Source: Acidimicrobiia bacterium (lineage in GTDB: Bacteria; Actinomycetota; Acidimicrobiia; Spongiisociales; DATADW01). From it: 54,727 nt of DNA. Below the pieces are notes generated by a model. The model saw nothing but the letters and a program-made list of their open reading frames with translations, was not told where the DNA came from and did no database searches. Numbering within the stretch: the first letter of the stretch is position 1; each line of letters opens with the position of its first letter. The stretch spans positions 1 through 54,727 of the forward strand of contig DATADW010000382.1 of the NCBI GenBank assembly GCA_036258335.1. Reading direction: 5' to 3'. Position numbers and translations under genes: made by a program. This document shows positions 10,334 to 49,185 of this stretch, one piece after another.

Positions 10334-12529
10334 TCAGTCGACGGGTTCGGGGAGGGCGGCACTATCGAGGGCGGTGGCGAGGATCATGGCGATGTCCTGG
10401 ACACGGACATCATCTCCTCGCCCGATCTCCTTGACCCCGTCGTCGATCATCACGAGGCAGTACGGACAGGCGACGGCAACCGTAGAGGCGCCGGTGGCGA
10501 CGGCCTCCTCCGCACGCTCCACGTTGACCTTCTTCCCGGTGTGCTCCTCCATCCAGAATCGGGCGCCACCCGCCCCACAGCACATGGCGCGGTTGCCGCT
10601 GCGCGGCATCTCGATCAGGCTTCCGGCTGCACCGGATGCGGCAACCTCACGGGGCGGCAGGTACACGTCGTTGTGCCTCCCCAGATAACACGGGTCGTGG
10701 TAGGTGATCGCCCCATCACCGCCATCGGGCACCGGGACCAGACCGCGCCGCATGAGCTCGGCCAGTAGCTGGCTGTGGTGAATCACCTCGTATGTGCCGC
10801 CGAGTTGGGGGTACTCGTTGGCCAGCGTGTTGAAGCAATGCGGACACTGGGTCACCACGGTCCGCACCCCGAACTCGTCGAGGGTGGCGATGTTCTGCAG
10901 GGCGAGCTGCTGGAACACGTATTCGTTTCCGGACCGACGGGCGGGGTCACCGGTGCACAGCTCGCGTGGGCCGAGGATGGCGAAGTCGAGCCCGGCGTGG
11001 TGCATGAGCCGGGCCATCGACAACGTCACCGCCCGGTTGCGATCGTCAAAGGAGCCGGCGCACCCCACCCAGTAGAGGTAGTCGGCCGACTCAACACCGT
11101 CGCGACCGAGGACCGGTACCTCGAAGTCGAGTGACGCCGTCCAATCTGCCCTGGTCTGCTGACTCATGGCCCATGGGTTCGACTGGTTCTCCATGGCCAA
11201 ATACGCCTTGCCCAACTCGGGTGGGAAGTCGGACATCATGAGCGAGAGATGGCGTCGCATGTCGAGGATCTTGTCGAGGATCTCGATGTTCACCGGGCAG
11301 ATCTCGTCGCATGCCTTGCAGCTGGTGCAAGACCACACCTCTTCGGGCTGGATCCGCTCAAAGACGCTCGCCGAGCTGACCGTTATCCCATTTACGGTCT
11401 CCACCGGCGGCGACACTGCTGGATCACCGGTGAGGGCGGCGACCTCGCCGAGCTTGATGACGATCTCGCGGGGGTCGAGCGGCTTCCCGGTGAGCTGAGC
11501 TGGGCACACGGACGTGCAGCGACCGCAGATGGTGCAGGCATCGGTGTCGAGCAGCTGCTTCCAGGTGAACTCGGTGATCTGGGCGGCGCCCACGGACTCG
11601 ATGTCGTCGGTCTCCATCAGGTTGGGGACCGGCCGCATTGCCCCCTTGGGGCGCTGGTGTGGGGAGAGGACCATGTTCGCCGGTGAGGTGAACATGTGCC
11701 GCAGCTTCGTGGTGGGGAGAATCACCAGGAAGCCGCCGAAGGCGACGACATGTGCCACCCAGAACGTGCGGTGGAGAGCAACGGCCGCCGTCTCGGGGAC
11801 GAGGAAACTCAGCGGATAACCGACGAATGACCAAACCTCGAAGGCAGGCCTCCCGTCAACGACGATGCGAGCCGCCTCGGTGGCCAGCCCGCTGAGGCCG
11901 ATGACCGCCAGGATCGCCAGGATCCATCCGTCCTCGGGCTTGGTCTTGGAGCGGATCCGCCATGGGCGCTGCCCATAACGGCGGAGCGCTCCGAGGGCCA
12001 GCCCTCCCAGGAACACGAGCGACGCCAGGTCGAGGATCGCCGAGTAACCCTGGTACACCCTCCCCTCGAGGAACTTGAACTGGTCGGGGAGGATGTGGTC
12101 GATCTCCAGAGTCACCGTACCCAGGAAGAGGACGACGAAGCCCCAGTAGATCATGGAGTGCATCAACCCGGCGGCGGGGTCGCGCATCAGGGTCCGCATC
12201 GACAAACCGCGCAGGAGCTGGCGAAGCCGCTCCTTCCAGAGACCGAGACGCCGGTCGGGCCCGCCCCGTCCCCAGTTGCGCGCTCTCAGAGCGAACAGAT
12301 ACGCCGCGATGAACACCGCTGCACTAACCGCCACATAGAAGAGGACTACGACTGCCCCCGGGATGTTGCCGAAGACCTCGCGCCCGACCTCAGGACGTCT
12401 GTCGTCGAAGAGCTCTCCCAGCCACCAGAGCGCCAGCGTGCCACCTGCCAGCACAAATGCCAGACCGAGAAGGAACCCGGCGGCGGTGAATCTCCGCTTG
12501 CGCTCCTCGGTCGCCGCCGGCTCTGTCAT
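10334..12529 (-). CDS. Membrane-anchored (Fe-S)-binding oxidoreductase, HdrD/GlpC-like with CCG domains
   Basis: N-terminal multi-TM region, two 4Fe-4S motifs (CTICGRCTSVCPA, CTSCKACDEICPV) and CCG-type motifs (CPHCFNTL, YHDPCYLGRH). Start trimmed to ATG 12529, because the ORF-track extension lies inside a repeat element. Confidence 0.8.
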   Translation of the reverse strand: MTEPAATEERKRRFTAAGFLLGLAFVLAGGTLALWWLGELFDDRRPEVGREVFGNIPGAVVVLFYVAVSAAVFIAAYLFALRARNWGRGGPDRRLGLWKERLRQLLRGLSMRTLMRDPAAGLMHSMIYWGFVVLFLGTVTLEIDHILPDQFKFLEGRVYQGYSAILDLASLVFLGGLALGALRRYGQRPWRIRSKTKPEDGWILAILAVIGLSGLATEAARIVVDGRPAFEVWSFVGYPLSFLVPETAAVALHRTFWVAHVVAFGGFLVILPTTKLRHMFTSPANMVLSPHQRPKGAMRPVPNLMETDDIESVGAAQITEFTWKQLLDTDACTICGRCTSVCPAQLTGKPLDPREIVIKLGEVAALTGDPAVSPPVETVNGITVSSASVFERIQPEEVWSCTSCKACDEICPVNIEILDKILDMRRHLSLMMSDFPPELGKAYLAMENQSNPWAMSQQTRADWTASLDFEVPVLGRDGVESADYLYWVGCAGSFDDRNRAVTLSMARLMHHAGLDFAILGPRELCTGDPARRSGNEYVFQQLALQNIATLDEFGVRTVVTQCPHCFNTLANEYPQLGGTYEVIHHSQLLAELMRRGLVPVPDGGDGAITYHDPCYLGRHNDVYLPPREVAASGAAGSLIEMPRSGNRAMCCGAGGARFWMEEHTGKKVNVERAEEAVATGASTVAVACPYCLVMIDDGVKEIGRGDDVRVQDIAMILATALDSAALPEPVD

Positions 12530-12540
12530 GCGCCGCCGAG

Positions 12541-12736
12541 AATAGGTGGTCAGTGGTAAGCGGTAGGTGGTGGGGGTCCTCGCCTCCCCGGTGAGGGGGA
12601 GGCGCCAGCGGAGCGAGCGGAGAGGGTGATTCGCGCCGTTGGGAGTCCGCCAGCTCCCCACCCACTGCTCCGCAGCGGCGCCCTTCCCCCCTGCGGGGGG
12701 ACGGATTCGGATTGGCTGCCGTCTTCCGTCTTCAGC
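12541..12736. repeat. Intergenic mosaic repeat, copy E1
   Basis: Contains hairpin CGCCTCCCC-GGTGA-GGGGAGGCG (12581-12604), core CGCGCCGTTGGGAGTCCGCCA (12632-12652), hairpin CCACTGCTCCGCAGCGG, hairpin CCCCCCTGCGGGGGG and terminal GCCGTCTTCCGTCTTC. Long matches to 49065-49185 (reverse complement) and 45290-45575. Confidence 0.8.
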
Positions 12737-13519
12737 CTAGGTCTCGGATTGCTCTCCGTCGCCGGTGGCAGGCATTGCCTCGACCGGGGTTGCTTCGGGG
12801 ACCTCGGTTTCGAGACCAAGCTCCCGCCGCAGCTCTTCCAGCTTGGCGTCGGCGCCCGCCACCGAGATCGCCTCGCGCAGCTCGGCTTCGGCACCTGCGG
12901 GTGTCGCCTCCCTCAGCTCGGTGCGCGCCTTGGCTGAGGCGAGCCGCTGGTTGATCTTGTCCTCGACCTTTTCCAGCGAGGGCGCCTCGGACTCCATGTT
13001 GGCCGAGATCGACTCGACCGCCGAGTTGACCGCTTCCTGCATGCGCGCTTGTTGCAGCGAGCCGAGGAGCTGCATCCGCCTAGCGGCGAGTTCTTGGAGT
13101 CGCATGGCGTTCTGCTGGACGGCGCCCTTGGCGGCGTCGGCCTGACCCACCGCCATCTCGTACTGGTCCTTGAGCGATTCGAGGTTGTTCTCTGCAGCCT
13201 GCAGCTTGAGCGCCAGGCTCTGCGCCGCCTGGTTCCACTTGCTCTCCGCCGCGGTGTCGCCGGCCGTCTTGGCCGAATCCCCCCTGAGCAATGCCTGCTT
13301 CGCCATCTCGCGCGTCTCGCCGACTGAGTCGGCCGACTGCTCGAGCTTCTGCTCGAGTTGGGTTCGGTGGGCGATCACCTTGGCCGCCTGGTTCCGAAGC
13401 TCCTGGTCGCGCTTGCGAGCCTCGGTGATGGCCACCTCGATCTCGACCTCGGGGTCCATGGCCCGCTCGGCCGTGCCGCGAAACCACTGCTTGATGTAAC
13501 TCCAGATGCGCCTGAACAT
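12737..13519 (-). CDS. pspA: PspA/IM30-family membrane-stress protein
   Basis: 260 aa. N-terminus MFRRIWSYIKQWFRGTAERAMDPEVEIEVAITEARKRDQEL followed by long coiled-coil. AGGAGG lies 9 nt upstream of the ATG. Confidence 0.85.
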   Translation of the reverse strand: MFRRIWSYIKQWFRGTAERAMDPEVEIEVAITEARKRDQELRNQAAKVIAHRTQLEQKLEQSADSVGETREMAKQALLRGDSAKTAGDTAAESKWNQAAQSLALKLQAAENNLESLKDQYEMAVGQADAAKGAVQQNAMRLQELAARRMQLLGSLQQARMQEAVNSAVESISANMESEAPSLEKVEDKINQRLASAKARTELREATPAGAEAELREAISVAGADAKLEELRRELGLETEVPEATPVEAMPATGDGEQSET

Positions 13520-25230: not shown

Positions 25231-26400
25231 TCAGTCCACCTTCCATTCCCTCTCCAGCGTGTCGGCGAGGTGTGGTGCGAACAACTCGGGCTCGAGAAGG
25301 AAGGAGTCGTGGCCCTTGTCGGAGTGGACGGTGATCCTCCTCACAGGGACCCCGGCGGCTTTGAGCGCGCCGACCAGCGCCTCTTGCTCCTCGGGGTAAT
25401 AACAGACGTCCGAATCGATGCTGAACACCATGTAGCGCTGGTGGCGGCAACGGGCGAAGGCGGGCACGGCCGAGCCGCCGTGCTCGGCGACCAGGTCGTA
25501 GCGCTGCCATGCCTCCATGAGCAGTAGGTAGGTGTTGGCGTCGAAGCGGCGGACGAACTTGCTCCCTTGGTGCCACATGTACGACTCGAGCGGGTGGCGG
25601 ATCCGGCCGCCCAGCGCCTCACCCGGCGACGTCACCTCCCCCCTGGCGCGCTCCTCGATGGCGGAGAGCGAAACGAATGTCTTGTGCCCGATCATCCGTG
25701 CCAGAGCCAGACCCCGATCGGGCGACGGCCCTTGGTAGAAGTCACCACCGGCGAAATCCGGGTCGTGGAGGATGGCCACCTTCTGCTCGAAGTTGTGGAG
25801 GCGCTGCAGCGCCGTGGTCTGCAGCCCGGCGGCTATCGGGATGACGATCGAGACCCGCTGGGGGTACCGGGTGGCCAGGCTGAGACACATCTGCCCACCG
25901 ACCGACCCCCCCACCACAGCGTGGAGACGGTCGATCCCGAGGTGGTCGAGCAACCGAACCTGGCTGTCGACTATGTCGTCGAAGGTCACCGCCGGAAAGC
26001 TCGACCCGTAGTGGCGGCCGGTCATCGGGTCGAGGCTGGCCGGGCCCGTGGACCCATAGCAGCCACCCAGGTAGTTGACGCAGATCACCGCGAAACGATC
26101 GGTGTCGATGGCGCGGCCCGGCCCGATGAAGGCGTCCCACCATCCCAGGCAGCACTCCTCGGTCCACCGGTCGCCTATCCCGGCCACCATCTCGTTCCAC
26201 CCTGCGGCGTGCTGGCTCCCGGTGAGAGCATGGATGACCAGGACCACGTTGTCTCTCTCCGGGGAGACCTCGCCATACAACTCGTAGGCCAGGGTCACCT
26301 GGGCGAGCGATGCGCCGCTCTGGAGGCGCACCGGATCGTCCGGTCCTCCGTAGGTGAAGAACCGAGTGGTGGCGGAACCGATCGACCCACCCAGATCCAT
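25231..26400 (-). CDS. metX: Homoserine O-acetyltransferase
   Basis: 389 aa. HALTGSQHAAGW, GWWDAFIGPGRAIDTDRF, VVGGSVGGQM (nucleophile elbow). No Shine-Dalgarno sequence; the leader is the pyrimidine face of a heptamer array. Confidence 0.85.
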   Translation of the reverse strand: MDLGGSIGSATTRFFTYGGPDDPVRLQSGASLAQVTLAYELYGEVSPERDNVVLVIHALTGSQHAAGWNEMVAGIGDRWTEECCLGWWDAFIGPGRAIDTDRFAVICVNYLGGCYGSTGPASLDPMTGRHYGSSFPAVTFDDIVDSQVRLLDHLGIDRLHAVVGGSVGGQMCLSLATRYPQRVSIVIPIAAGLQTTALQRLHNFEQKVAILHDPDFAGGDFYQGPSPDRGLALARMIGHKTFVSLSAIEERARGEVTSPGEALGGRIRHPLESYMWHQGSKFVRRFDANTYLLLMEAWQRYDLVAEHGGSAVPAFARCRHQRYMVFSIDSDVCYYPEEQEALVGALKAAGVPVRRITVHSDKGHDSFLLEPELFAPHLADTLEREWKVD

Positions 26401-26403
26401 GTG

Positions 26404-26450
26404 GGCGGAACCGTAGACGGAAGGCGGAAGACGGAAGACGGAAGGCGGAA
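26404..26450 (+). repeat. Tandem heptamer array (GRCGGAA)n between the vapC stop and the metX start
   Basis: GGCGGAA-ccgta-GACGGAA-GGCGGAA-GACGGAA-GACGGAA-GGCGGAA, continuing with 7-nt phasing into GCAGTCC-CGAGTCC (to 26464). Confidence 0.85.
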
Positions 26451-26466
26451 GCAGTCCCGAGTCCCA

Positions 26467-26877
26467 TCACTCGGAGAGTGAATCCGGGTCGAGGTCGATT
26501 TCGACTACGGCGGCGATGCGATTGAGGTCGGCGTCGTGGACCAGCAGAGATGCTCTGGTCCGCCAGGCAACCGCGGCGATCATGCAGTCGACCATCCCCC
26601 TCGGAGTGATCCCTGAGCGTCGGCACCGCCGGTAGATGGTGGCAGCGCCTTCGAAGTCGACCACCGAATCGAACCGGAGGAGATGGAATCTCAGCAGCAG
26701 GCGCCGGAGGTCGGCAGCGCTCGCTTCGTCGCGAGCTCCGGCGAGCACTTCCATCGCAACGGGCTCGGTGACGGCGAGTTCGTCGCCGGCCGCGATCAGC
26801 TCTGTGAGACGCCGATCTACCGGGCTGCCCGTTCCCCGGTCGTACTCGACCCAGGCCGAGGTGTCGGCAAGTATCAC
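26467..26877 (-). CDS. vapC: PIN-domain toxin VapC
   Basis: 136 aa. MILADTSAWVEY (first acidic residue), EVLAG, MVDCMIAAVA, LVHDADL. 4-nt overlap with vapB. Confidence 0.85.
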   Translation of the reverse strand: MILADTSAWVEYDRGTGSPVDRRLTELIAAGDELAVTEPVAMEVLAGARDEASAADLRRLLLRFHLLRFDSVVDFEGAATIYRRCRRSGITPRGMVDCMIAAVAWRTRASLLVHDADLNRIAAVVEIDLDPDSLSE

Positions 26878-27086
26878 GACCCGCCAGTGGGGCCAGCATC
26901 CTCGGGCGGAGTTTCCATGGCGTGGGCGCCACGCATCTTCAGGGCCTCCTCACGGGTCATCGGCAACCCGGCGAGCTGTCTGAGGGCAAGGTCGACAGCC
27001 TCGGTCTTGGTCCTGACCCCGTAGCGGTCCATGATTGCCTCGACATAGCGGCTGTCGATTTCGATGTTGGTGCGAACCCGGGTCAT
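26874..27086 (-). CDS. vapB: VapB-family antitoxin (DUF2191/Arc-like)
   Basis: A 70-aa reading from ATG 27086: MTRVRTNIEIDSRYVEAIMDRYGVRTKTEAVDLALRQL. The longer ORF-track extension runs into repeat sequence. Confidence 0.8.
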   Translation of the reverse strand: MTRVRTNIEIDSRYVEAIMDRYGVRTKTEAVDLALRQLAGLPMTREEALKMRGAHAMETPPEDAGPTGGS

Positions 27087-27127
27087 ACACCAAATATACA
27101 CGCTAGGTGTAGAAATGGTGTACCACT
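27087..27127 (-). promoter_or_regulatory. Candidate vapBC promoter/operator
   Basis: Locally AT-richer. On the minus strand, GGTACACC-ATTTC-TACACC-TAGC-GTGTA-TATTT-GGTGTA precedes the ATG. It includes the inverted repeat TACAC(N5)GTGTA (27097-27111) and a TATATT -10-like hexamer. Confidence 0.4.
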
Positions 27128-27189
27128 TGGATGGCAAATAGGTCGCGCCATCACCCTCCCCAACCACCCCTTCCCCCACCGAGATGGGA

Positions 27190-27224
27190 AACGGAAGGTG
27201 GAAGACGGAAGTCGGGAGTCGGGA
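27190..27224 (+). repeat. Tandem heptamer array upstream of vapB
   Basis: AACGGAA-GGTGGAA-GACGGAA-GTCGGGA-GTCGGGA, in the same orientation as the 26404-26450 array. It lies inside a segment bounded by the inverted repeat GGTGTACCACT (27117-27127) / AGTGGTACAC (27230-27239). Confidence 0.8.
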
Positions 27225-27336
27225 CGGGGAGTGGTACACGGCACGAGTGTTTACCATCGGGAAGAGGCCCGACACCAAGTGTCCGTCCCATGCTGTCCCG
27301 CTCTGTCGTCCTAGCCGGGGAGCGGACGGGACCAAC

Positions 27337-30317: not shown

Positions 30318-30399
30318 GGGGCGAGACCGTAGAGGGCGGGGTTTCAGCTTGTCAAAACCCAAAGTTACGAGTGGTGCAAGGTGAAGTTGCACGTCTCAA

Positions 30400-30612
30400 G
30401 TCGGAAGACGAAGGACAGAAGACGGAAGAACGACGGTACCGACTGGCAAGGGAAACACTGTCGGAGTGAGGTCACCCAATCAAGGAAAGAGAGCCATGAT
30501 TCTCGCGGAATTCCCCGCTTCGGCTTGCGTCCCCCCGTTGGCCCGCACCGGAGGAGGCAGATTCTCGCCCTAGGCGAGCGGATTGACTTCCGACTTCCGA
30601 CTTCCGTCTTGT
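30400..30612. repeat. Intergenic element E4 bounded by inverted heptamer arrays
   Basis: The left array is GTCGGAA-GACGAAG-GACAGAA-GACGGAA-GAACGAC (30400-30434). The right array is GACTTCC x3 then GTCTTGT (30585-30612), the reverse complement of GGAAGTC. The interior holds CGTCCCCCC and the CTCGCC-CTA-GGCGAG hairpin. Confidence 0.75.
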
Positions 30613-41548: not shown

Positions 41549-41800
41549 GGCGAGATTCTGGTCGGTGGGGCCTCACGCTTCCGCGGGCCGGTGAGACGAT
41601 TTCCAGGCTCTCGGGTTCGCAAGCGCCAGATTTTCGGTATTCTTCCCACAACGCCGAGCCCGGTCGGAGAGACCGGGGCGGGGGACCCAAATCAATGGGG
41701 CGAATCCCGGTACGCCGGGTAGGGCGCCTTCCGGCCCGAGCCCGTCAGCTAACCCCGTAGGCAGCAGGAAGGAGGCCAGCTCGCTGGCTCTCCGCGGAAC

Positions 41801-41838: not shown

Positions 41839-42777
41839 ATGCCGCACCGGAGAGCCGATACCAACGTGCGACGGCGGGTATGGGTCGCCGATCGCGAGGG
41901 TGCCAACCTGCCCTACTCGAAGGGGCTCATGGCGGCTTCGATAATGGCCACCGGTATCCCACCGGGCCGCGCCTATGACTTGGCCGAGCTCATCGAGCAC
42001 GATCTGGTCTCGCTGGGACGAGATGGCGTTGATGCCGACACGCTCTCCGGTATCGCGGCCGACGTCCTGCAACGCCATGTCGGGGATCACATAGCGCGTC
42101 GCTACCTCGCCTGGCGGGCGGCGAAGCGCTCGCCGCGCCCCATCGTCGTCCTCATCGGAGGCGCCACCGGGGTGGGCAAGTCGACCGTGGCCACCAAGCT
42201 CGCCGCCCGCCTCGGAATCACCAGGGTCATCCCCACCGACACGGTACGCGAGGTGATGCGCACCTTCATGCCTGCCCTCCAGGCACCCGAACTGCATAGC
42301 TCGTCGTTCGAAGTGGGAGGACAGGATGAGAACCTGATCGACGGTTTCCTCCGCCAGAGCAGATCGGTGGCCACCGGGATCGACGGCGTGGTGGGGAGGA
42401 TGATCGCCGAGCACAAGGACGCAATCGTCGAGGGGATCCACCTGGTACCCGGGATGCTCGACGAGGAGATCCTCCACCGGTTCCGACTCGAGGCAGCGGT
42501 GGTCAAGGTACTGCTCACCCTTCCGGATGCCTTGGTGCATCGGGCGCACTTCATCGGACGCCTGGAGAGCGAGCATGGCCGGCGCCCTGAGCGCTATCTG
42601 CGTAACCTCGGTGACATCCGCCGAATCCAGACCCACCTCGAGGCATTGGCCGGGGCGCACGGGTTCTCGCTGGTCGACGCCTCCGACCTCGACGAGGCGA
42701 TCCAGCAGGTGCTCGACGTGGTCGTCGCCGAGGTCACCAGCATCACGGGGGAGAGCCAGGTGTTCGCTGCCGGGTGA
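41839..42777 (+). CDS. 2-phosphoglycerate kinase-like protein (ATP-cone plus P-loop kinase)
   Basis: 312 aa. ATP-cone-like N-terminus (VWVADREGANLPYSKGLMAASI...ARRYLAWR), P-loop VLIGGATGVGKST and ITRVIPTD. The start could instead be GTG 41866. Confidence 0.75.
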   Translation: MPHRRADTNVRRRVWVADREGANLPYSKGLMAASIMATGIPPGRAYDLAELIEHDLVSLGRDGVDADTLSGIAADVLQRHVGDHIARRYLAWRAAKRSPRPIVVLIGGATGVGKSTVATKLAARLGITRVIPTDTVREVMRTFMPALQAPELHSSSFEVGGQDENLIDGFLRQSRSVATGIDGVVGRMIAEHKDAIVEGIHLVPGMLDEEILHRFRLEAAVVKVLLTLPDALVHRAHFIGRLESEHGRRPERYLRNLGDIRRIQTHLEALAGAHGFSLVDASDLDEAIQQVLDVVVAEVTSITGESQVFAAG

Positions 42778-44081
42778 CCTCCACCCGGGCCTTGGTCCTC
42801 ATCGACGGCGAACACCACCCATCTGTTGTGCGAGATGGGCTGGTCGAGCTCGAGCGGCGCGGCATGCCTGCGGTGGCGGCGCTGTTCCTCGGCGGCTCCG
42901 AGAAGACGGCGGGTCCCCCCGATCTGTCCGTCCCGGTCCACTCGGGCGACCCGGCCTCAACTCTCGGCGATCTGATCGCCCGCTACCGCCCCGACGTGGT
43001 CTTCGACATGAGTGATGAGCCGATACTCGATCACCGTGCCCGTTTCGTCCTGGTGGGTGTGGCCCTCGCCGCCGGCGTCGCCTATGCCGGCGGAGGGTTC
43101 CGGTTCGACCCCCCGCCCACCCCCCGGCTGACGGACACTGCCTCGGTCGCCGTGACGGGCACCGGGAAGCGGACGGGGAAGACCGCAGTGTCGATCGCCT
43201 TGGCGCGCCACTGGGCGGCTGCCGGGAGGAGACCGGTTGTGGTCACGATGGGCCGCGGGGGGCCGCCCGAGCCCGTGGTTCTCGACCCCGGGAACCTCGC
43301 CGACCCCGTGGATGCGCTCCGCTCGCTGGCCAGCCGCGGACTCCACGCCGCCTCGGATTACGTCGAAGACGCCATCTTCGCCGGAGTCCCCACCGTCGGG
43401 ACGAGGCGGATCGGCGCCGGTCCCGCCGGGGTGACCGTGGACGACACTTTCGCCGCCGGGGTCGCCGCCGCTACCGACCTCGACCCGGGGCTTCTCATCT
43501 TCGAGGGAAGCGGGACCGCTCTCCCCCCGGCGCGTGCTGACACCGGTGTGTTGGTTATGCGGTCCCAACTCGATGGGGAGTACATCGGCGGGTACCTGGG
43601 CCCGTTTCGCCTGGCGATGGCGGATGCGGTGGTCGTGGTTGAAGACGGTGGATCGGCGGCGGCGGTCGTGCGCCGGGTGTCGCCGGGCACGGTTGTCTTC
43701 GAGGGTCGCTATGTCGTCGAGCCGACGGTGTCCGTGGAGGGAAGACGGGTCACAGTTGCGACCACCGCCCCGGTGACCGCCGGGGACGAGCTGGCCGCCC
43801 AACTGCGCAGTCTCGGCGCCGCGGCTGCGACGGTGATCCATACCCTCTCAAAACGCAACCGGCTCATCGCCGACCTGGAGGCCGCCCCACGGTGCGACCT
43901 GGTTCTCACCGAGGTCAAGGCCGCTGCGGCCGATGTGGTCCTCCCGTGGGCGGATAGGAGCCAGATCGATGTCGGTCTACTACACAACGTGGTGCAGGTC
44001 GAAGGGGGGATCGGGTCTCTGGCCGGTGCCCTGGAGCAGCGGTTACCTTCACCCCAAGCGCCTCAGCCGAGCACCCGGTAG
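42774..44081 (+). CDS. Cyclic 2,3-diphosphoglycerate synthetase-like protein
   Basis: 435 aa, GTG start in a GTGA overlap with the kinase. Motifs LIDGEHHP, GGSEK, DMSDEPILDHRARF, GTGKRTGKTAVS, MGRGGPPEP, HAASDYVED, FEGSGTALPP, GPFRLAMAD, TTAP, LTEVKAAAADV. Confidence 0.75.
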   Translation: MTSTRALVLIDGEHHPSVVRDGLVELERRGMPAVAALFLGGSEKTAGPPDLSVPVHSGDPASTLGDLIARYRPDVVFDMSDEPILDHRARFVLVGVALAAGVAYAGGGFRFDPPPTPRLTDTASVAVTGTGKRTGKTAVSIALARHWAAAGRRPVVVTMGRGGPPEPVVLDPGNLADPVDALRSLASRGLHAASDYVEDAIFAGVPTVGTRRIGAGPAGVTVDDTFAAGVAAATDLDPGLLIFEGSGTALPPARADTGVLVMRSQLDGEYIGGYLGPFRLAMADAVVVVEDGGSAAAVVRRVSPGTVVFEGRYVVEPTVSVEGRRVTVATTAPVTAGDELAAQLRSLGAAAATVIHTLSKRNRLIADLEAAPRCDLVLTEVKAAAADVVLPWADRSQIDVGLLHNVVQVEGGIGSLAGALEQRLPSPQAPQPSTR

Positions 44082-44377
44082 ATCTTCCGAATCGGCTCGC
44101 GCCGGAGTAAGCCCCTCACCCGTTCCTGACTGGCGACCAGCTCAGGGGAGTCGAGGGCCGCCTCCATCGCCTCCACCGATGTCCAGCGGGTGATCACTCC
44201 ACCCTCGACGAGCCCGCTCACCCCCGCTTCCTCTGCGATTACCAGGTCGATTCCCAGGCAATCGGGGTGGTCGCGGAAGGCAGGGACGACATCGGTCTCG
44301 AACAGGCGGATGACCTCCTCGACATCGTCGGGGGAGACCGCCGAGAGGAAGAAGCGGATGTAGCTCACCAGCCCCAC
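44063..44377 (-). CDS. ABM/Dabb-fold (antibiotic-biosynthesis-monooxygenase-like) small protein
   Basis: About 101-104 aa. An alternative GTG 44368 start gives a GTGA overlap with the upstream metallophosphoesterase stop. The 3' end overlaps the convergent cDPGS-like stop by 19 nt. Confidence 0.5.
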   Translation of the reverse strand: MGLVSYIRFFLSAVSPDDVEEVIRLFETDVVPAFRDHPDCLGIDLVIAEEAGVSGLVEGGVITRWTSVEAMEAALDSPELVASQERVRGLLRREPIRKIYRVLG

Positions 44378-45264
44378 GTGGATTTTGAGAACATGCCGGC
44401 CAGCTCGGGGTTGCGGTCGAGCACGCGGGTGGTTCGGTCGTACCTGGCGGCCAGCTTCTCGCCGCTACCCGGATACATCAGGGTTACCGAGATGGCCTCG
44501 GGGTCAATGGTGACCACGTTGTACGACGGCCTGGCGTAGCCCCGAAGCCGGAAGGACGAGACGGTCCCGCTGTTGACCACCATGATCCCGTCGACCACCC
44601 AGATATGGGGCACGTGCTTGTGACCACAGAGAACCAGATCCACACCGCTCTCTTCGAGCACCGCCAGCACGTCGCCGGCATCCCACACGGTGTTGCGCTC
44701 CCGCCCCGTTCCCGGGACCGGTACCAGATGGTGATGGAGTGCGAATATTCGGAAGTCCGATGGGGTGGCGAACTGCTCGCGGATCCACGGGTAGCGGAAC
44801 CTTCCCACCTCTCCCTCGGCGAGGTCGGGCTTGGAGCTATCCACCGCTACCAACGTGACCCGCTCCGGTGTGACACCCCTGGCTAGGTCGACGACCACGT
44901 CGTTTCCGGCGTCCCCCTTGCCGAAGTGGTCCTCGAAATGGACGTAACCGACGTTCTTGGCGTCGTGGTTCCCCGGGACGACCACGGTGAGCAGCTCGTC
45001 GAGCAGGGGGCGCAGCGCGTCGCGCGCCATCTGGAACTCGTTGGCGTAGCCCTCCTGGGTGAGATCGCCGGCGACCACCACCATGTCGGGTTGGAGGGCG
45101 AGCACCTCTTCGACGGCGTGATTGAGCAGGCCGGGGTCGAAGTACAGAGAGCCGCAGTGGATGTCCGACAGCTGGGCGATGGTGAGCACGACTGTGCCCG
45201 ATGCTAACCACGGCCGCTCGTCGGGATGTGGCTCCCTCCGGGCCACCGCGGTGACGGTGCTCAC
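44365..45264 (-). CDS. Calcineurin-like metallophosphoesterase
   Basis: 299 aa, GTG start. Motifs SDIHCG, VVAGDLTQEG, VPGNHD, ALHHH, LCGHKH. Confidence 0.8.
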   Translation of the reverse strand: MSTVTAVARREPHPDERPWLASGTVVLTIAQLSDIHCGSLYFDPGLLNHAVEEVLALQPDMVVVAGDLTQEGYANEFQMARDALRPLLDELLTVVVPGNHDAKNVGYVHFEDHFGKGDAGNDVVVDLARGVTPERVTLVAVDSSKPDLAEGEVGRFRYPWIREQFATPSDFRIFALHHHLVPVPGTGRERNTVWDAGDVLAVLEESGVDLVLCGHKHVPHIWVVDGIMVVNSGTVSSFRLRGYARPSYNVVTIDPEAISVTLMYPGSGEKLAARYDRTTRVLDRNPELAGMFSKSTWGW

Positions 45265-45289
45265 CTACTCCCGAAGCACTACCGCGGTG

Positions 45290-45575
45290 ACCGGGGGTAG
45301 ACCCACTTTCCTCAGTGGGAGTCGACTCCCCCTCCCGGTGAGGGAGGGGAAACCTTTGGCATGGCCTTGCGGCGCATTGCTTCCGTCCCCCGAAGGGGGG
45401 AAGGGACCCGCTGCGGAGCAGCGGGCAGGAGGGAGCACCGAGCCTCCCAGAGGTGAGCCTGGCGCGGCTTTCGCACCGTTGGGAGTTCGCCATGCCCCCC
45501 TCCCCCTCGGGGAGAGGGAATCGTTTCCTTCGGGGGGACGGAATCGAACGAGCCGTCTTCCATCATCCCTCTTGC
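45290..45575. repeat. Intergenic mosaic repeat E5, a head-to-head double copy
   Basis: The left half matches the reverse complement of E1: CCGTCCCCCGAAGGGGGGAAGGGACCCGCTGCGGAGCAGCGGG. The right half matches E1 directly, with core CGCACCGTTGGGAGTTCGCCA (45472-45492) and ...GGGGGGACGGAATCGAACGAGCCGTCTTCC. It also holds the palindrome GGGAGTCGACTCCC and hairpin CTCCCGGTGAGGGAG. Confidence 0.8.
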
Positions 45576-47135
45576 TCACTCCACACTGACTACGACCGAG
45601 TGGTAGCCGGTCGCTCCGTCGGGGGCCGGTGGTGCAACCTCATCGGTTTGGGCGTCACCGTTGCCGTCGGTGGCACGCACCATGATCGAGTGAGCTCCTG
45701 GGGTCGCCTCCCACGGCATCCGCCATTGGCGCCATGTTGTATCGGCCAGTTCGGCGGCGAGCTCGGCGGGCTGCCATTGCCCGCCATCCACCCTCACCTC
45801 GACACCGCTGATCCCGCGTGTCGGCGCCCAGGCGACACCGGCGATGGTCCGCTGGCCGGGACGGATCGTGGCGCCATCCACCGGGACATCGATCCGCGAC
45901 TGGGTCTTTATCGGCGCCTCCTTGGACCAACCACGCGGCACCCAGTAGGCATCGAAGGCGTCCCAGGAGGTGAGCTCGACCTCGGTGAGCCACTTGGTAG
46001 CCGACACGTACCCATACAGCCCGGCGACAATCAGCCGGGCGGGGAATCCGTGCTCGAAGGGAAGCGGCTCACCGTTCATCCCTACTGCCACTAAGGCATC
46101 GCGCCCGTCGAGAGCCGCCTCGGTGGGAAAGCCAACGGTGAAGCCGTCGACCGACCGTCCCACGATTTGGGTCGCCCCCGGTTGCATACCCGCTCGCTCC
46201 AACAGCGCCGGGAGAGGGACGCCCATCCACTTGGCGGTGCCGATCAGATTGCCACCCACCTCGTTGCTGACGCAGGCGATGGTGACGTGACGCTCCGCCA
46301 AGGGCATCTCGATCAGATCTGTGAACTCGATCTCGAAGGGCCGGTCCACCATCCCAGTGAATCCGAGCCGCCAGGTGCTCAGGTCCACCCTCGGCACGGT
46401 TAGTGCGGTATCGATGCGGTAAAAGTCGGCGTTCGGTGTGACCAGGGGTGAGAGCCCCTCGACCTGGAACGATGCTCGGGCCGGTGGCGCGGCCACGGTC
46501 TCGGTCGCCGCCGGCAGCACCACATCGTCGCGGCCCGCCAGCATGCGCCTCGCCCGATCGGCGATGAGGCGCCCCCCGGCGAATGCCAGCGCGGCCAGCG
46601 CAACCACCGACCCGGCAGCAAGGATGAATGCTCGCCTCCCCTTGTCGGTGCCCGCGTCAACGGCCGAAATGCCCAGCCGAAGCAGACCTATCAGCACCAC
46701 GATTCCCACGAGTGCAGCGATCGACGCCGCCACCCAGACACCCCATGGCGAGGCATCGGGGATCCGCAAGGCCGACAGTGCCCCGGCCAACCCGAACGCA
46801 GCGAAAGCGATGACCGCCCACCCCATCCACCGGGCAGTCAGCAGTCCGACAACCGCACCGATGCCGGCAATGACCAATACCGACCCCACCAAAAGGGCGG
46901 TCTTGTCGTTGGTGCCGAAAATCCCAATGGCAGCGTCCTTCACGCCAGGCGGCACCGTGTCGATGACGAACGTCCCCACCGATTCGAGCAGCGAGGGGAC
47001 ATCGGTCAGCAACCCGGCGACCAACTCTGATGCGCCCAGAGCCGCCAAGGCGGCCACCACCCCGGAGACAGCTTGTCGCCCTCGGTGTGACCCCATGGTC
47101 GGAGTCGGGGCAATCGGGGCTTCGGTGGTGGCCAT
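45576..47135 (-). CDS. Sulfite-oxidase-family molybdopterin oxidoreductase with an N-terminal multi-TM domain
   Basis: 519 aa. FYRIDTA, ACVSNEVGG (Mo-ligand Cys region), GFPARLIVAGLYGYVSATKWL. Confidence 0.8.
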   Translation of the reverse strand: MATTEAPIAPTPTMGSHRGRQAVSGVVAALAALGASELVAGLLTDVPSLLESVGTFVIDTVPPGVKDAAIGIFGTNDKTALLVGSVLVIAGIGAVVGLLTARWMGWAVIAFAAFGLAGALSALRIPDASPWGVWVAASIAALVGIVVLIGLLRLGISAVDAGTDKGRRAFILAAGSVVALAALAFAGGRLIADRARRMLAGRDDVVLPAATETVAAPPARASFQVEGLSPLVTPNADFYRIDTALTVPRVDLSTWRLGFTGMVDRPFEIEFTDLIEMPLAERHVTIACVSNEVGGNLIGTAKWMGVPLPALLERAGMQPGATQIVGRSVDGFTVGFPTEAALDGRDALVAVGMNGEPLPFEHGFPARLIVAGLYGYVSATKWLTEVELTSWDAFDAYWVPRGWSKEAPIKTQSRIDVPVDGATIRPGQRTIAGVAWAPTRGISGVEVRVDGGQWQPAELAAELADTTWRQWRMPWEATPGAHSIMVRATDGNGDAQTDEVAPPAPDGATGYHSVVVSVE

Positions 47136-48657: not shown

Positions 48658-49065
48658 ATGACAGACACCGAGCGGACCGAACTCCCAACCACCGAGGAGG
48701 GATGGCGGAGCAGGCTCACGCCAGAACAGTACGAAGTACTCCGGCGAGAGGGGACCGAGCGGGCATTCACCGGCGTCTACTGGAACGAGAAGGAGCCCGG
48801 GCTCTACCGCTGCGCCGGGTGCGGTACGCCCTTGTTCTCGTCGGACACCAAGTACGACTCGGGAACCGGGTGGCCCAGCTTCTGGGAGCCGGTATCTCCC
48901 ACCGCCATCGAGAGCCGCGACGACTTCAGCACGGGGATGGCGCGCACCGAGGTGCGTTGTGCCACCTGCCATGGCCACCTCGGGCACGTCTTCCCCGACG
49001 GGCCACAACCGACCGGTCTGCGCTACTGCATGAACTCCGCCGCGCTGGACCTAGAGCGGAGCTAG
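48658..49065 (+). CDS. msrB: Peptide-methionine (R)-S-oxide reductase
   Basis: ATG 48658 preceded by [17 protein letters not shown]...GWPSF...[12 protein letters not shown]...RYCMNS. Confidence 0.9.
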
Positions 49066-49185
49066 ACGGAAGACGGCAGACTCCCTATCCGTCCCCCCGG
49101 AGGGGGGAAGGTGATACCCGCCGCCGCCATGAGAGCCACCCCCTCCGCTCGCTCGGCTCGCGCCTCCCCTCACCGGGGGAGGCAC
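49065..49185. repeat. Intergenic mosaic repeat, copy E6 (reverse orientation relative to E1)
   Basis: It starts on the last base of the msrB stop: GACGGAA-GACGGCA, CCGTCCCCCCGGAGGGGGGAAGG, then CCACCCCCTCCGCTCGCTCGGCTCGCGCCTCCCCTCACCGGGGGAGGC. Long matches to the reverse complement of 12581-12628 and 12681-12732. Confidence 0.8.

Follow-up and report, generated by a model that had tools for sequence, protein, structure and literature searches.

The spacer between the metallophosphoesterase and oxidoreductase genes

The window studied here is the entire 54.7-kb contig C382 of G000, a metagenome bin of 3.23 Mb in 441 contigs with a GC content of 66.7%. Two genes on its minus strand, one encoding a metallophosphoesterase (44365-45264) and the other a molybdopterin-oxidoreductase of the Oxidored_molyb family with a C-terminal Ig domain (45576-47135), are separated by a spacer of 311 nt (45265-45575). 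A first-pass annotation of the sequence had placed this spacer between a sulfite-oxidase-family gene and a metallophosphoesterase gene and had described it as almost entirely repeat. Its length and its neighbours are confirmed, but the repeat covers only 45326-45575, with modules that recur at 12582-12736 and 49064-49183, while positions 45265-45300 are the relic of a peptidase gene. In our judgement the spacer is probably a copy of a dispersed, non-coding family of DNA-level repeats of the type known as repetitive extragenic palindromes (REPs) and bacterial interspersed mosaic elements (BIMEs), which belongs to a single uncultured genus of soil Acidimicrobiia and of which a module of two hairpins occurs patchily in three other genera of the same order. 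The family itself is undescribed; its kind is already known, and it does not represent a new system.

The genus of the window comprises six species (G000-G005). The sister genus is G006, and G011, G207 and G176 represent other genera of the same order. All relatives are bins that are 72-85% complete. Comparison with G004 identifies the non-repeat end of the spacer (45265-45300, plus strand) as the last ~36 nt of an M28-like peptidase gene including its stop codon (TAG, 45298-45300), the aligned sequences being ...GCCCGGAGCACCACCCCAGTGAACGGGGGGTAG in G004 and CTACTCCCGAAGCACTACCGCGGTGACCGGGGGTAG in the window. The gene is intact in G004 (G004:C18:273087-274807), with the metallophosphoesterase gene on one side and the oxidoreductase gene on the other, and the G002 spacer at this site is similar in length to that of G004 (~1.6 kb). 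In G000 and G001 the gene itself is lost and the same relic remains.

Next to the relic lies a small hairpin (45302-45319; CCCACT, loop TTCCTC, AGTGGG), which is local, as it has no partner intergenic regions and no recurrence was seen. The repeat proper starts with a variant of hairpin v (45329-45349; CCCCTCCC, loop GGTGA, GGGAGGGG). It continues with an inverted left unit on the minus strand, composed of hairpin ii (45383-45404; CCGTCCCCC, loop GAA, GGGGGGAAGG) with a TTCCGTC tag at its head, hairpin iii (45407-45425; CCCGCTGC, loop GGA, GCAGCGGG) and a diverged core (45437-45458; ACCGAGCCTCCCAGAGGTGAGC). This left core was recognised from an alignment of 10 dimers and from a minus-strand nhmmer match at 45521-45375. 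Its orientation is opposite to that of the 21-nt core in the right unit (45472-45492, plus strand; CGCACCGTTGGGAGTTCGCCA), to which it is partially complementary. In the right unit the position of hairpin iii' is taken by another C/G hairpin (45498-45518; CCCTCCCCC, loop TC, GGGGAGAGGG), followed by the right arm of hairpin ii with its tag (45532-45543, plus strand; GGGGGGACGGAA). The left arm of this hairpin is gone, and the full hairpin is kept at the equivalent position in G001 and G004. The spacer ends with a degenerate heptamer remnant (45552-45575, minus strand), which adjoins the oxidoreductase stop codon (45576-45578) and reads TGA GCAAGAGGGATGATGGAAGACGGC in the sense of the gene; its equivalent in G001 and G004 is CCGTCTGCCGTCT.

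The sequence relations proposed in the first-pass annotation are borne out. The left half is inverted relative to 12661-12705, since 45387-45425 is the reverse complement of 12661-12699 with 90% identity over 39 nt. The 21-nt core agrees with 12632-12652 at 19 of 21 positions; it has these two matches in the window, and none is expected by chance (100 shuffles). A hairpin of six C, three spacer nucleotides and six G occurs at 12682-12704, 45383-45405 and 49089-49111, with 0.07 occurrences expected.

A consensus unit and its head-to-head dimer

The consensus monomer of ~160 nt consists of hairpin v, a GAGCGAGCGG tract, the 21-nt core, CCCCCCTA, hairpin iii (19 nt), hairpin ii (22-23 nt) and an inverted (TKCCGTC)n heptamer array. 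Its 5' half reads CCTCCCCC-GGTGA-GGGGGAGG (hairpin v), CGCGAGCGGAGCGAGCGGAGGGGGTGA, CGCACCGTTGGGAGTTCGGCAG (core) and CCCCCCTA. The 3' half reads CCCGCTGC-TCC-GCAGCGGG (hairpin iii), TCCCTTCCCCCC-TCC-GGGGGGACGGAA (hairpin ii), ~10 nt and (CTKCCGT)n. The palindromes are GC-rich, and the linkers between them (the GAGCGAGCGG tract, the 21-nt core and CCCCCCTA/TAGGGGGG) are non-palindromic and conserved. The array heptamer corresponds to the GACGGAA beside hairpin ii in inverse form. The most frequent form of the unit spans only the part from the core to the array (~110 nt), and in most units an array is present on one side only.

A second recurrent form is the head-to-head dimer. On its left side hairpin ii, hairpin iii, TAGGGGGG and the inverted core lead to the core-to-core junction CCGCGGC, and on its right side the junction is followed by core', CCCCCCTCCCC, the hairpin CGACGCC-TCC-GGCGTCG and the hairpin CTCCCCCC-GCC-GGGGGGAG. 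The dimer model is covered to more than 60% at 14 loci in G000, including 45352-45596 in the window (E = 6.5e-44). The spacer had been described beforehand as a head-to-head double copy, which is correct, but the arrangement is not a single event of this locus.

Copy number and genomic location

In G000, 423 of the 1762 intergenic regions resemble another intergenic region. An iterated nhmmer profile found 112 matches in the 3.23-Mb genome, corresponding to 102 non-overlapping composite copies, 92 of which are intergenic. A genome-wide search had been set beforehand as the test between a dispersed family and a local duplication only, and further copies were found. In total the repeat blocks (n=204) make up ~0.5% of the genome and ~4% of the intergenic DNA. 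The intergenic percentages are approximate because the genes were called with our own codon-usage caller, and both shares are lower bounds because copies are 2.5-fold over-represented at contig ends (21% of the composite copies are found no more than 300 nt from a contig end, where 8% would be expected). The caller ran some open reading frames (ORFs) into repeats, for example 10334-12661, and the boundaries that entered the analysis were corrected manually.

Copies lie in either orientation and are tolerated only outside genes. The occupancy of spacers by units depends on the direction of the neighbouring genes (p = 1.5e-4): units occupy 6.0% of the convergent, 3.1% of the divergent and 2.1% of the tandem spacers and are thus found between convergent genes three times as often as between tandem ones. 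In the window itself, all six spacers for which repeats had been listed hold heptamer arrays or composite units, and all six lie between co-directional genes as stated; this co-directional setting does not extend to the genome, where units are most frequent between convergent genes.

Distribution and turnover at orthologous sites

Each of the six species of the genus carries the unit. When the spacer segment served as a DNA query, at least 40-65 matches were obtained in each of G001-G005, these counts being lower bounds, and the (GACGGAA)3 pattern has 38-151 matches in each of the six genomes, compared with none for the reversed control. The same pattern is absent from 35 genomes of other genera in the family and order. 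Outside the genus, 114 genera of the class were sampled, and the module of hairpins iii and ii with CCCCCCTA was found in only three of them (G011, G207 and G176), which belong to three other families of the same order. There it is paired with other linkers, with other heptamers (GGTTCTG in G011) or is found in tandem clusters (G207). In G207 (G207:C2:350900-351600) a ~125-nt version of the unit, composed of TAGGGGGG…CCCCCCTA, hairpin iii and a variant of hairpin ii, forms three direct tandem copies; such a direct cluster was not seen in the genus of the window. The exact 27-mer CCCCCCTACCCGCTGCTCCGCAGCGGG has no match in viral contigs and none in JGI metagenome contigs.

The site at 45265-45575 is filled in G001 and G004, where a canonical monomer lies beside the oxidoreductase stop codon together with other hairpins; G003 and the sister genus G006 have an empty site. 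Over the orthologous sites compared, the flanks are 93, 87 and 83% identical to those of G001, G004 and G003, respectively. The orthologous spacers reach only 71, 68 and 60% in the columns that align, and gap columns are about equally numerous. A second locus (C166) has a rearranged spacer in spite of flanks with 99% identity to G001: its array has 8 units compared to 1, and different parts of the dimer are deleted. At a third one (C199) G000 alone has the unit, joined through its array end to the resident array, and G001 and G003 have only an array of four units, 4 nt past the stop codon. Copies are reshuffled fast, by slippage of heptamers, deletions between hairpins and replacement of modules.

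Heptamer arrays at gene boundaries

Arrays of at least three GACGGAA-like units number 157 in G000, with four units as the commonest size (68 arrays), and no match was obtained with a reversed control heptamer pattern. As many as 139 arrays are intergenic in a genome of which only ~12% is non-coding. Among the 106 gene-proximal arrays 83 read GACGGAA away from the adjacent gene (83:23): 52 arrays near gene 3' ends are in sense and 16 in antisense orientation, and near 5' ends 31 are in antisense and 7 in sense orientation. The first-pass annotation had noticed sense heptamers directly after stop codons in the window. They indeed lie 0-8 nt past the stops of the genes ending at 12737, 30613 and 49065, with a degenerate copy at the stop at 45576. 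This orientation is a property of the arrays and not of the hairpin unit, whose array side is turned towards a gene 5' end in 33 cases and towards a 3' end in 31.

The exact (GACGGAA)3 is also found at 119 loci of public genomes, among them loci from many unrelated phyla, for example in Bacteroidales, Deltaproteobacteria, Planctomycetota and Gemmatimonadota, and one Gemmatimonadaceae bin has at least seven such loci. In unrelated phyla the GACGGAA arrays occur without the hairpin unit. The literature on the GACGGAA heptamer gave incidental matches only. Every junction within a (GACGGAA)n array contains GAAGAC, a Type IIS restriction site. Other heptamers are known from gene boundaries as well: arrays of GGGTTCT and GGGTAGT are located at C159:15889-16123 and in G011 (G011:C115), and depending on the species the orthologous site of C159 has GGGTTCT, GGGTAGT or GACGGCA arrays.

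Several observations weigh against the assignment of the family to dispersed REP/BIME-type repeats. Of 59 sense arrays about 40 begin 0-8 nt past the stop codon, and several overlap it (TAG-ACGG, TGA-GACGG). Outside the Acidimicrobiia the exact (GACGGAA)3 lies on the sense strand 0-30 nt past the end of a long ORF 42 times and on the antisense strand 4 times. A purely selfish repeat model leaves this precise heptamer position, and a rule that holds across phyla, unexplained. In addition, one copy of G000 (C145:1335-1472) is 90-91% identical in G001 and G004 between flanks that are 81-87% identical, which may reflect a local function or gene conversion. Neither a mobilising enzyme nor a target-site duplication nor an autonomous relative was found, so that the spread of the units is something we infer, and the approximate nature of the intergenic percentages has to be counted here too. 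At the C145 copy, three of the four species compared have the downstream ATG directly after the pyrimidine array (…CCGTCTTCCGTCTTGC ATG), with nothing resembling a Shine-Dalgarno motif; the tail in G003 differs.

Rather than plain products of slippage, the arrays could be an orientation-coded signal of gene boundaries used across phyla, with the GC-hairpin units as parasites that take the arrays as landing pads. We regard this as unlikely. It is suggested by the reading of the arrays away from genes and their start just past stop codons, together with the strand bias in other phyla. It is also suggested by a lone four-unit array that keeps its position and its number of units in two species with flanks 83-91% identical to G000, and by the fact that the hairpin unit, where it has been gained at an orthologous site, joins the resident array. 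If so, a polymerase leaving the gene may be halted by purine-rich RNA in RNA:DNA hybrids of very high stability or in two-tetrad quadruplexes. A complementary C-rich, G-poor transcript may instead load Rho on polymerases that enter the gene, or the arrays may be iterated copies of a CGTC-type tag made by a putative tag-specific nickase.

DNA-level repeat or structured RNA

Folded as RNA the spacer reaches -165.9 kcal/mol (z = -4.5 compared to shuffles), which is a consequence of its being built of palindromes. To distinguish between a structured RNA and a repeat at the DNA level we looked at stem pairing, orientation and mismatches. In hairpins v and ii the pairing is exactly what independent columns predict, with almost no compensatory change (hairpin ii is paired to 88.5% with only 3 compensatory cells). 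The few seemingly compensatory cells in hairpin iii result from alternative hairpin modules that share aligned columns. For copies with a known direction of transcription, G-U and A-C stem mismatches on the mRNA strand are equally frequent (29:29). Covariation, orientation and G-U strand asymmetry being all negative, a structured RNA, for which a covariation check had been foreseen, was rejected. Random orientation, missing covariation, the lack of a G-U bias and the rearrangement of copies at a faster rate than their flanks diverge all argue for a DNA-level repeat of the REP/BIME type.

The search in Rfam with 45200-45650 gave a best match of E = 0.48, far under the threshold, and the sole match of the window at the gathering threshold is a c-di-AMP riboswitch located elsewhere. 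The first-pass annotation had not recognised the sequence, and no catalogued family was matched. No terminator-like site was found in 45000-45800, the consensus has no T run after any of its modules, and canonical promoters were not found in the spacer.

It is therefore improbable, in our view, that the units are cis-acting structured RNAs, either intrinsic terminators without a U tract or stabilisers of mRNA 3' ends, that have been selected as functional gene-end signals and are not selfish DNA. REPs stabilise upstream mRNA, and the strong fold, the enrichment in convergent spacers, the many copies that start just past stop codons and the conservation of the C145 copy at 90% across species would all fit such a role. 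However, a gene-end signal of this kind agrees neither with an orientation that is random with respect to transcription (33 vs 31) nor with stems that pair no better than independent columns predict and show no excess of G-U mismatches. It also lacks a U tract or a terminator-like site, and most orthologous copies are rearranged even where the flanks are 93-99% identical.

Mobilising enzymes and insertion sequences

REP-associated tyrosine transposases (RAYTs; Y1 transposase domain, PF01797) were not found in nine genomes including all six of the genus, and the zinc-ribbon domain of TnpB (PF07282) is absent from every genome searched, again including all six. The control genomes were positive in both cases (for PF01797 E. 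coli, Deinococcus and others). Because the bins searched for PF01797 are 72-94% complete, its absence from one genome is weak and its absence from all six is strong. Explanations that derive the family from REP/RAYT systems or from IS200/IS605 elements were rejected on these grounds.

Arrays less than 300 nt apart are always in inward inverted orientation (12:0). The elements might be miniature inverted-repeat transposable elements (MITEs) with the heptamer arrays as their terminal inverted repeats, and a transposase acting in trans on GACGGAA iterons would then move them. The inward orientation of neighbouring arrays, the outward reading of 83 of 106 gene-proximal arrays as well as the presence/absence polymorphism at the 45265-45575 site and at C199 would be in line with this. 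The same is true for a small gene in G000 (C120:14246-14768) that is exactly bracketed by inverted (GACGGAA)4 and (CTTCCGT)4 arrays; its product we take, by eye, to resemble four-helix-bundle proteins of the '23S rRNA intervening sequence' type. Nevertheless we give this explanation little credence. Only ordinary genes and no transposase gene are found between inverted arrays, and no target-site duplication is evident at the junctions. Most units have their array on one side only, lone arrays without any element are conserved at orthologous sites, one and the same site carries different heptamers in different species, and arrays in unrelated phyla have no hairpin unit at all.

That the mosaic at 45290-45575 is a short-read assembly artefact, made of reads from several copies collapsed or chimerically joined, is hardly credible: the bin has 441 contigs with repeats over-represented at their ends, and the interior arrangement is unlike that of the closest relative G001, but identical modules and the dimer arrangement are present at 14 loci of G000, both also occur in long-contig assemblies of the five other species, and both flanks are syntenic with relatives.

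New copies would arise beside resident heptamer arrays through array-guided recombination. Alternatively, an enzyme that acts on the CGTC-like tag, and is neither RAYT nor TnpB, might be responsible. By analogy to REPs the stacked hairpins might also serve as incidental bidirectional barriers at mRNA 3' ends, a by-product that is possible in both directions because a palindrome works in both orientations.

IS110-family transposases are found in several of the repeat-bearing genomes. Three copies of such insertion sequences (IS) are inserted at the identical position CAGCCCCCC^CTACCCGCTGC of three different units, with CT(A) at both junctions, so that the target within the repeat is CAGCCCCCC-CT-ACCCGCTGC. 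One insertion is located in G001 (G001:C12:254625-258095; IS of 1467 nt) and two, by the same IS of 1295 nt, in G002 (G002:C9:317600-321700 and G002:C15:3000-7400). A 70%-identical IS was found in G207, which belongs to another family of the order. Three independent insertions at one fixed position identify the repeat as the natural target of these IS. The choice of the target is probably specified by a bridge RNA; k-mers shared between IS and target in a search for the guide were no longer than in shuffles. Nothing in these data suggests that the IS110 elements mobilise the repeat.

Comparison with known repeat families

The first-pass annotation had likened the elements to a dispersed modular family of the BIME/REP type, and this comparison stands: there are more than 100 intergenic copies, mosaics of palindromes and linkers, inverted dimers, and an occurrence in every species of the genus. 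Hairpins ii and iii are short palindromes (20-40 nt) in high copy number outside genes, as REPs are, and the monomer and head-to-head dimer forms with their conserved linkers are mosaics in the sense of BIMEs. To our knowledge no REP/BIME-like families have been described in this actinobacterial class. The BIMEs of E. coli and Salmonella (see PMC2817692) are mosaics of short GC-rich imperfect palindromes and conserved linkers in alternating orientation, with hundreds of extragenic copies that are under-represented in divergent, promoter-bearing spacers and serve as landing sites for IS, all of which resembles the situation here. Filled and empty sites, turnover and the preference for convergent genes agree with what PMC2817692 and PMC3733652 report on REP/BIME and related families. 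In contrast to BIMEs and REPs there is no sequence similarity, no GTAG beside any hairpin and no RAYT in any genome searched, and a unit contains three different hairpins, a 21-nt non-palindromic core and terminal heptamer arrays.

The CGTC-tagged REPs (Di Nocera, De Gregorio and Rocco 2013, PMC3733652) are defined in the text of that paper by an 8-9 bp stem whose first two pairs are A-T, a loop of 4-5 nt and a CCA-like tail. The text names five phyla for these repeats without mention of Actinobacteria and gives TGTC and CCTC as tag variants. The repeats described here have a comparable tag, namely TTC-CGTC-CCCCC, and the partner hairpin has CCTC (TTCCGTCCCCCC for hairpin ii, TTCCCTCCCCCC for hairpin ii'). 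As in that description, they form inverted dimers, lie between unidirectional and convergent ORFs and have no dedicated transposase. They differ from the REPs of the PMC3733652 text in a stem of T-A and six C-G pairs, a loop of 3 nt and a missing CCA tail, and in that the tag is also amplified into tandem arrays. The family is thus closest in logic to these RAYT-less, CGTC-tagged REPs and lies outside their definition by stem, loop and tail. It shares recurrent inverted dimers, and single units that resemble decayed dimers, with the REPINs (REP doublets forming hairpins) of Pseudomonas fluorescens (PMC3116915, PMC3337134), from which it differs in the absence of a RAYT partner and in longer units with several hairpins.

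For the heptamer arrays, that is for module (i) only, the GGGNATC repeats of Xanthomonas and Nostoc offer a comparison (Rehm et al. 2015, PMC4692102). These repeats are enriched in non-coding DNA that separates aligned ORFs and seldom occur between divergent ones, with the G-rich strand in sense within 50 bp after a stop codon or in antisense within 50 bp upstream of an ORF, and four units are the commonest number (PMC4692102). The arrays described here share this positional geometry. In contrast to GGGNATC, the unit GACGGMA has GG tracts only and can therefore form a two-tetrad quadruplex at most, and the arrays are physically coupled to a family of hairpin repeats, the unit being the inverse of the flanking tag of the hairpin.

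The insertions resemble those of IS110 members into REP-type targets (ISPpu10 in Pseudomonas putida, IS621 in E. coli) in their fixed position within a multi-copy intergenic repeat and differ from them in the target sequence. The mycobacterial interspersed repetitive units (MIRUs) of Mycobacterium tuberculosis are direct tandem repeats of 40-100 bp with short ORFs coupled to the flanking genes. A likeness to them had been proposed as well, and the intergenic position inside operons of an actinobacterium is indeed common to both. Beyond this the proposal fails, since the units here are palindromic, dispersed, found in either orientation and without a reading frame; no direct tandem repeats of 40-100 bp were found, and the 7-nt module alone is tandem. 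Coupled small ORFs were rejected because both orientations occur and indels are not multiples of three.

Other copies and features of the window

The best nhmmer match of the window is a complete monomer on the plus strand (12582-12736; E = 2e-37), of which orthologous copies are present in G001, G003 and G004. It is composed of hairpin v (12582-12603), the GAGCGAGCGG tract (12604-12631), the core (12632-12652), hairpin iii (12661-12678), hairpin ii (12682-12704) and an array (12716-12736) and adjoins the stop codon (12737-12739) of a pspA-family gene. AGGTGGT-type units with a period of 7 nt are located nearby (12544-12575), upstream of the start of the 10334-12529 gene. A second unit, found by nhmmer and by a search for inverted matches, lies on the minus strand at 49064-49183 and lacks hairpin iii and the core. 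It consists of an array that overlaps a TAG stop codon (49064-49080), hairpin ii (49089-49111), the GAGCGAGCGG tract (49137-49162) and hairpin v (49163-49183), and at the orthologous site of G003 the complete unit has been retained.

The remaining sites of the window are heptamer arrays. Seven GRCGGAA units on the plus strand (26404-26452) adjoin the 5' end of a hydrolase gene (25231-26400) and read away from it; a PIN-domain (VapC-like) gene (26467-26877) is directly downstream of this array, and an ORF in the region 26874-27100, upstream of the PIN-domain gene, may encode a candidate antitoxin. Two degenerate arrays are found on the plus strand, at 27189-27225 and, at the 5' end of a DtxR-family repressor gene, at 30392-30430. 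A further array on the minus strand (30583-30612) begins 4 nt past the stop codon of an ABC transporter gene (TAA ACAAGACGGAAGTCGGAAGTCGG). The c-di-AMP riboswitch (Rfam RF00379, 85 bits) is located at 41642-41778, upstream of the genes at 41866-44081.

Significance of the family

The elements represent the first described family of extragenic palindromes for the Acidimicrobiia, a widespread and almost uncultured class of soil and water bacteria. They account for many 'structured' spacers that, if the family were not known, could pass for riboswitches, small RNAs or regulatory sites, and their over-representation at contig ends helps to account for the fragmented short-read bins of the genus. 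Even genomes with 93-99% identity in the flanking genes differ in their arrays and mosaics, which are therefore potential markers for strain typing. The repeat also offers a natural, multi-copy and precisely defined target of an IS110-family recombinase in a host of high GC content. To the question of how REPs spread it adds a family without RAYT and with a CGTC-like tag. Finally, it physically links heptamer simple-sequence repeats to a palindromic family, and this link may help to account for the stop-proximal heptamers of several phyla.

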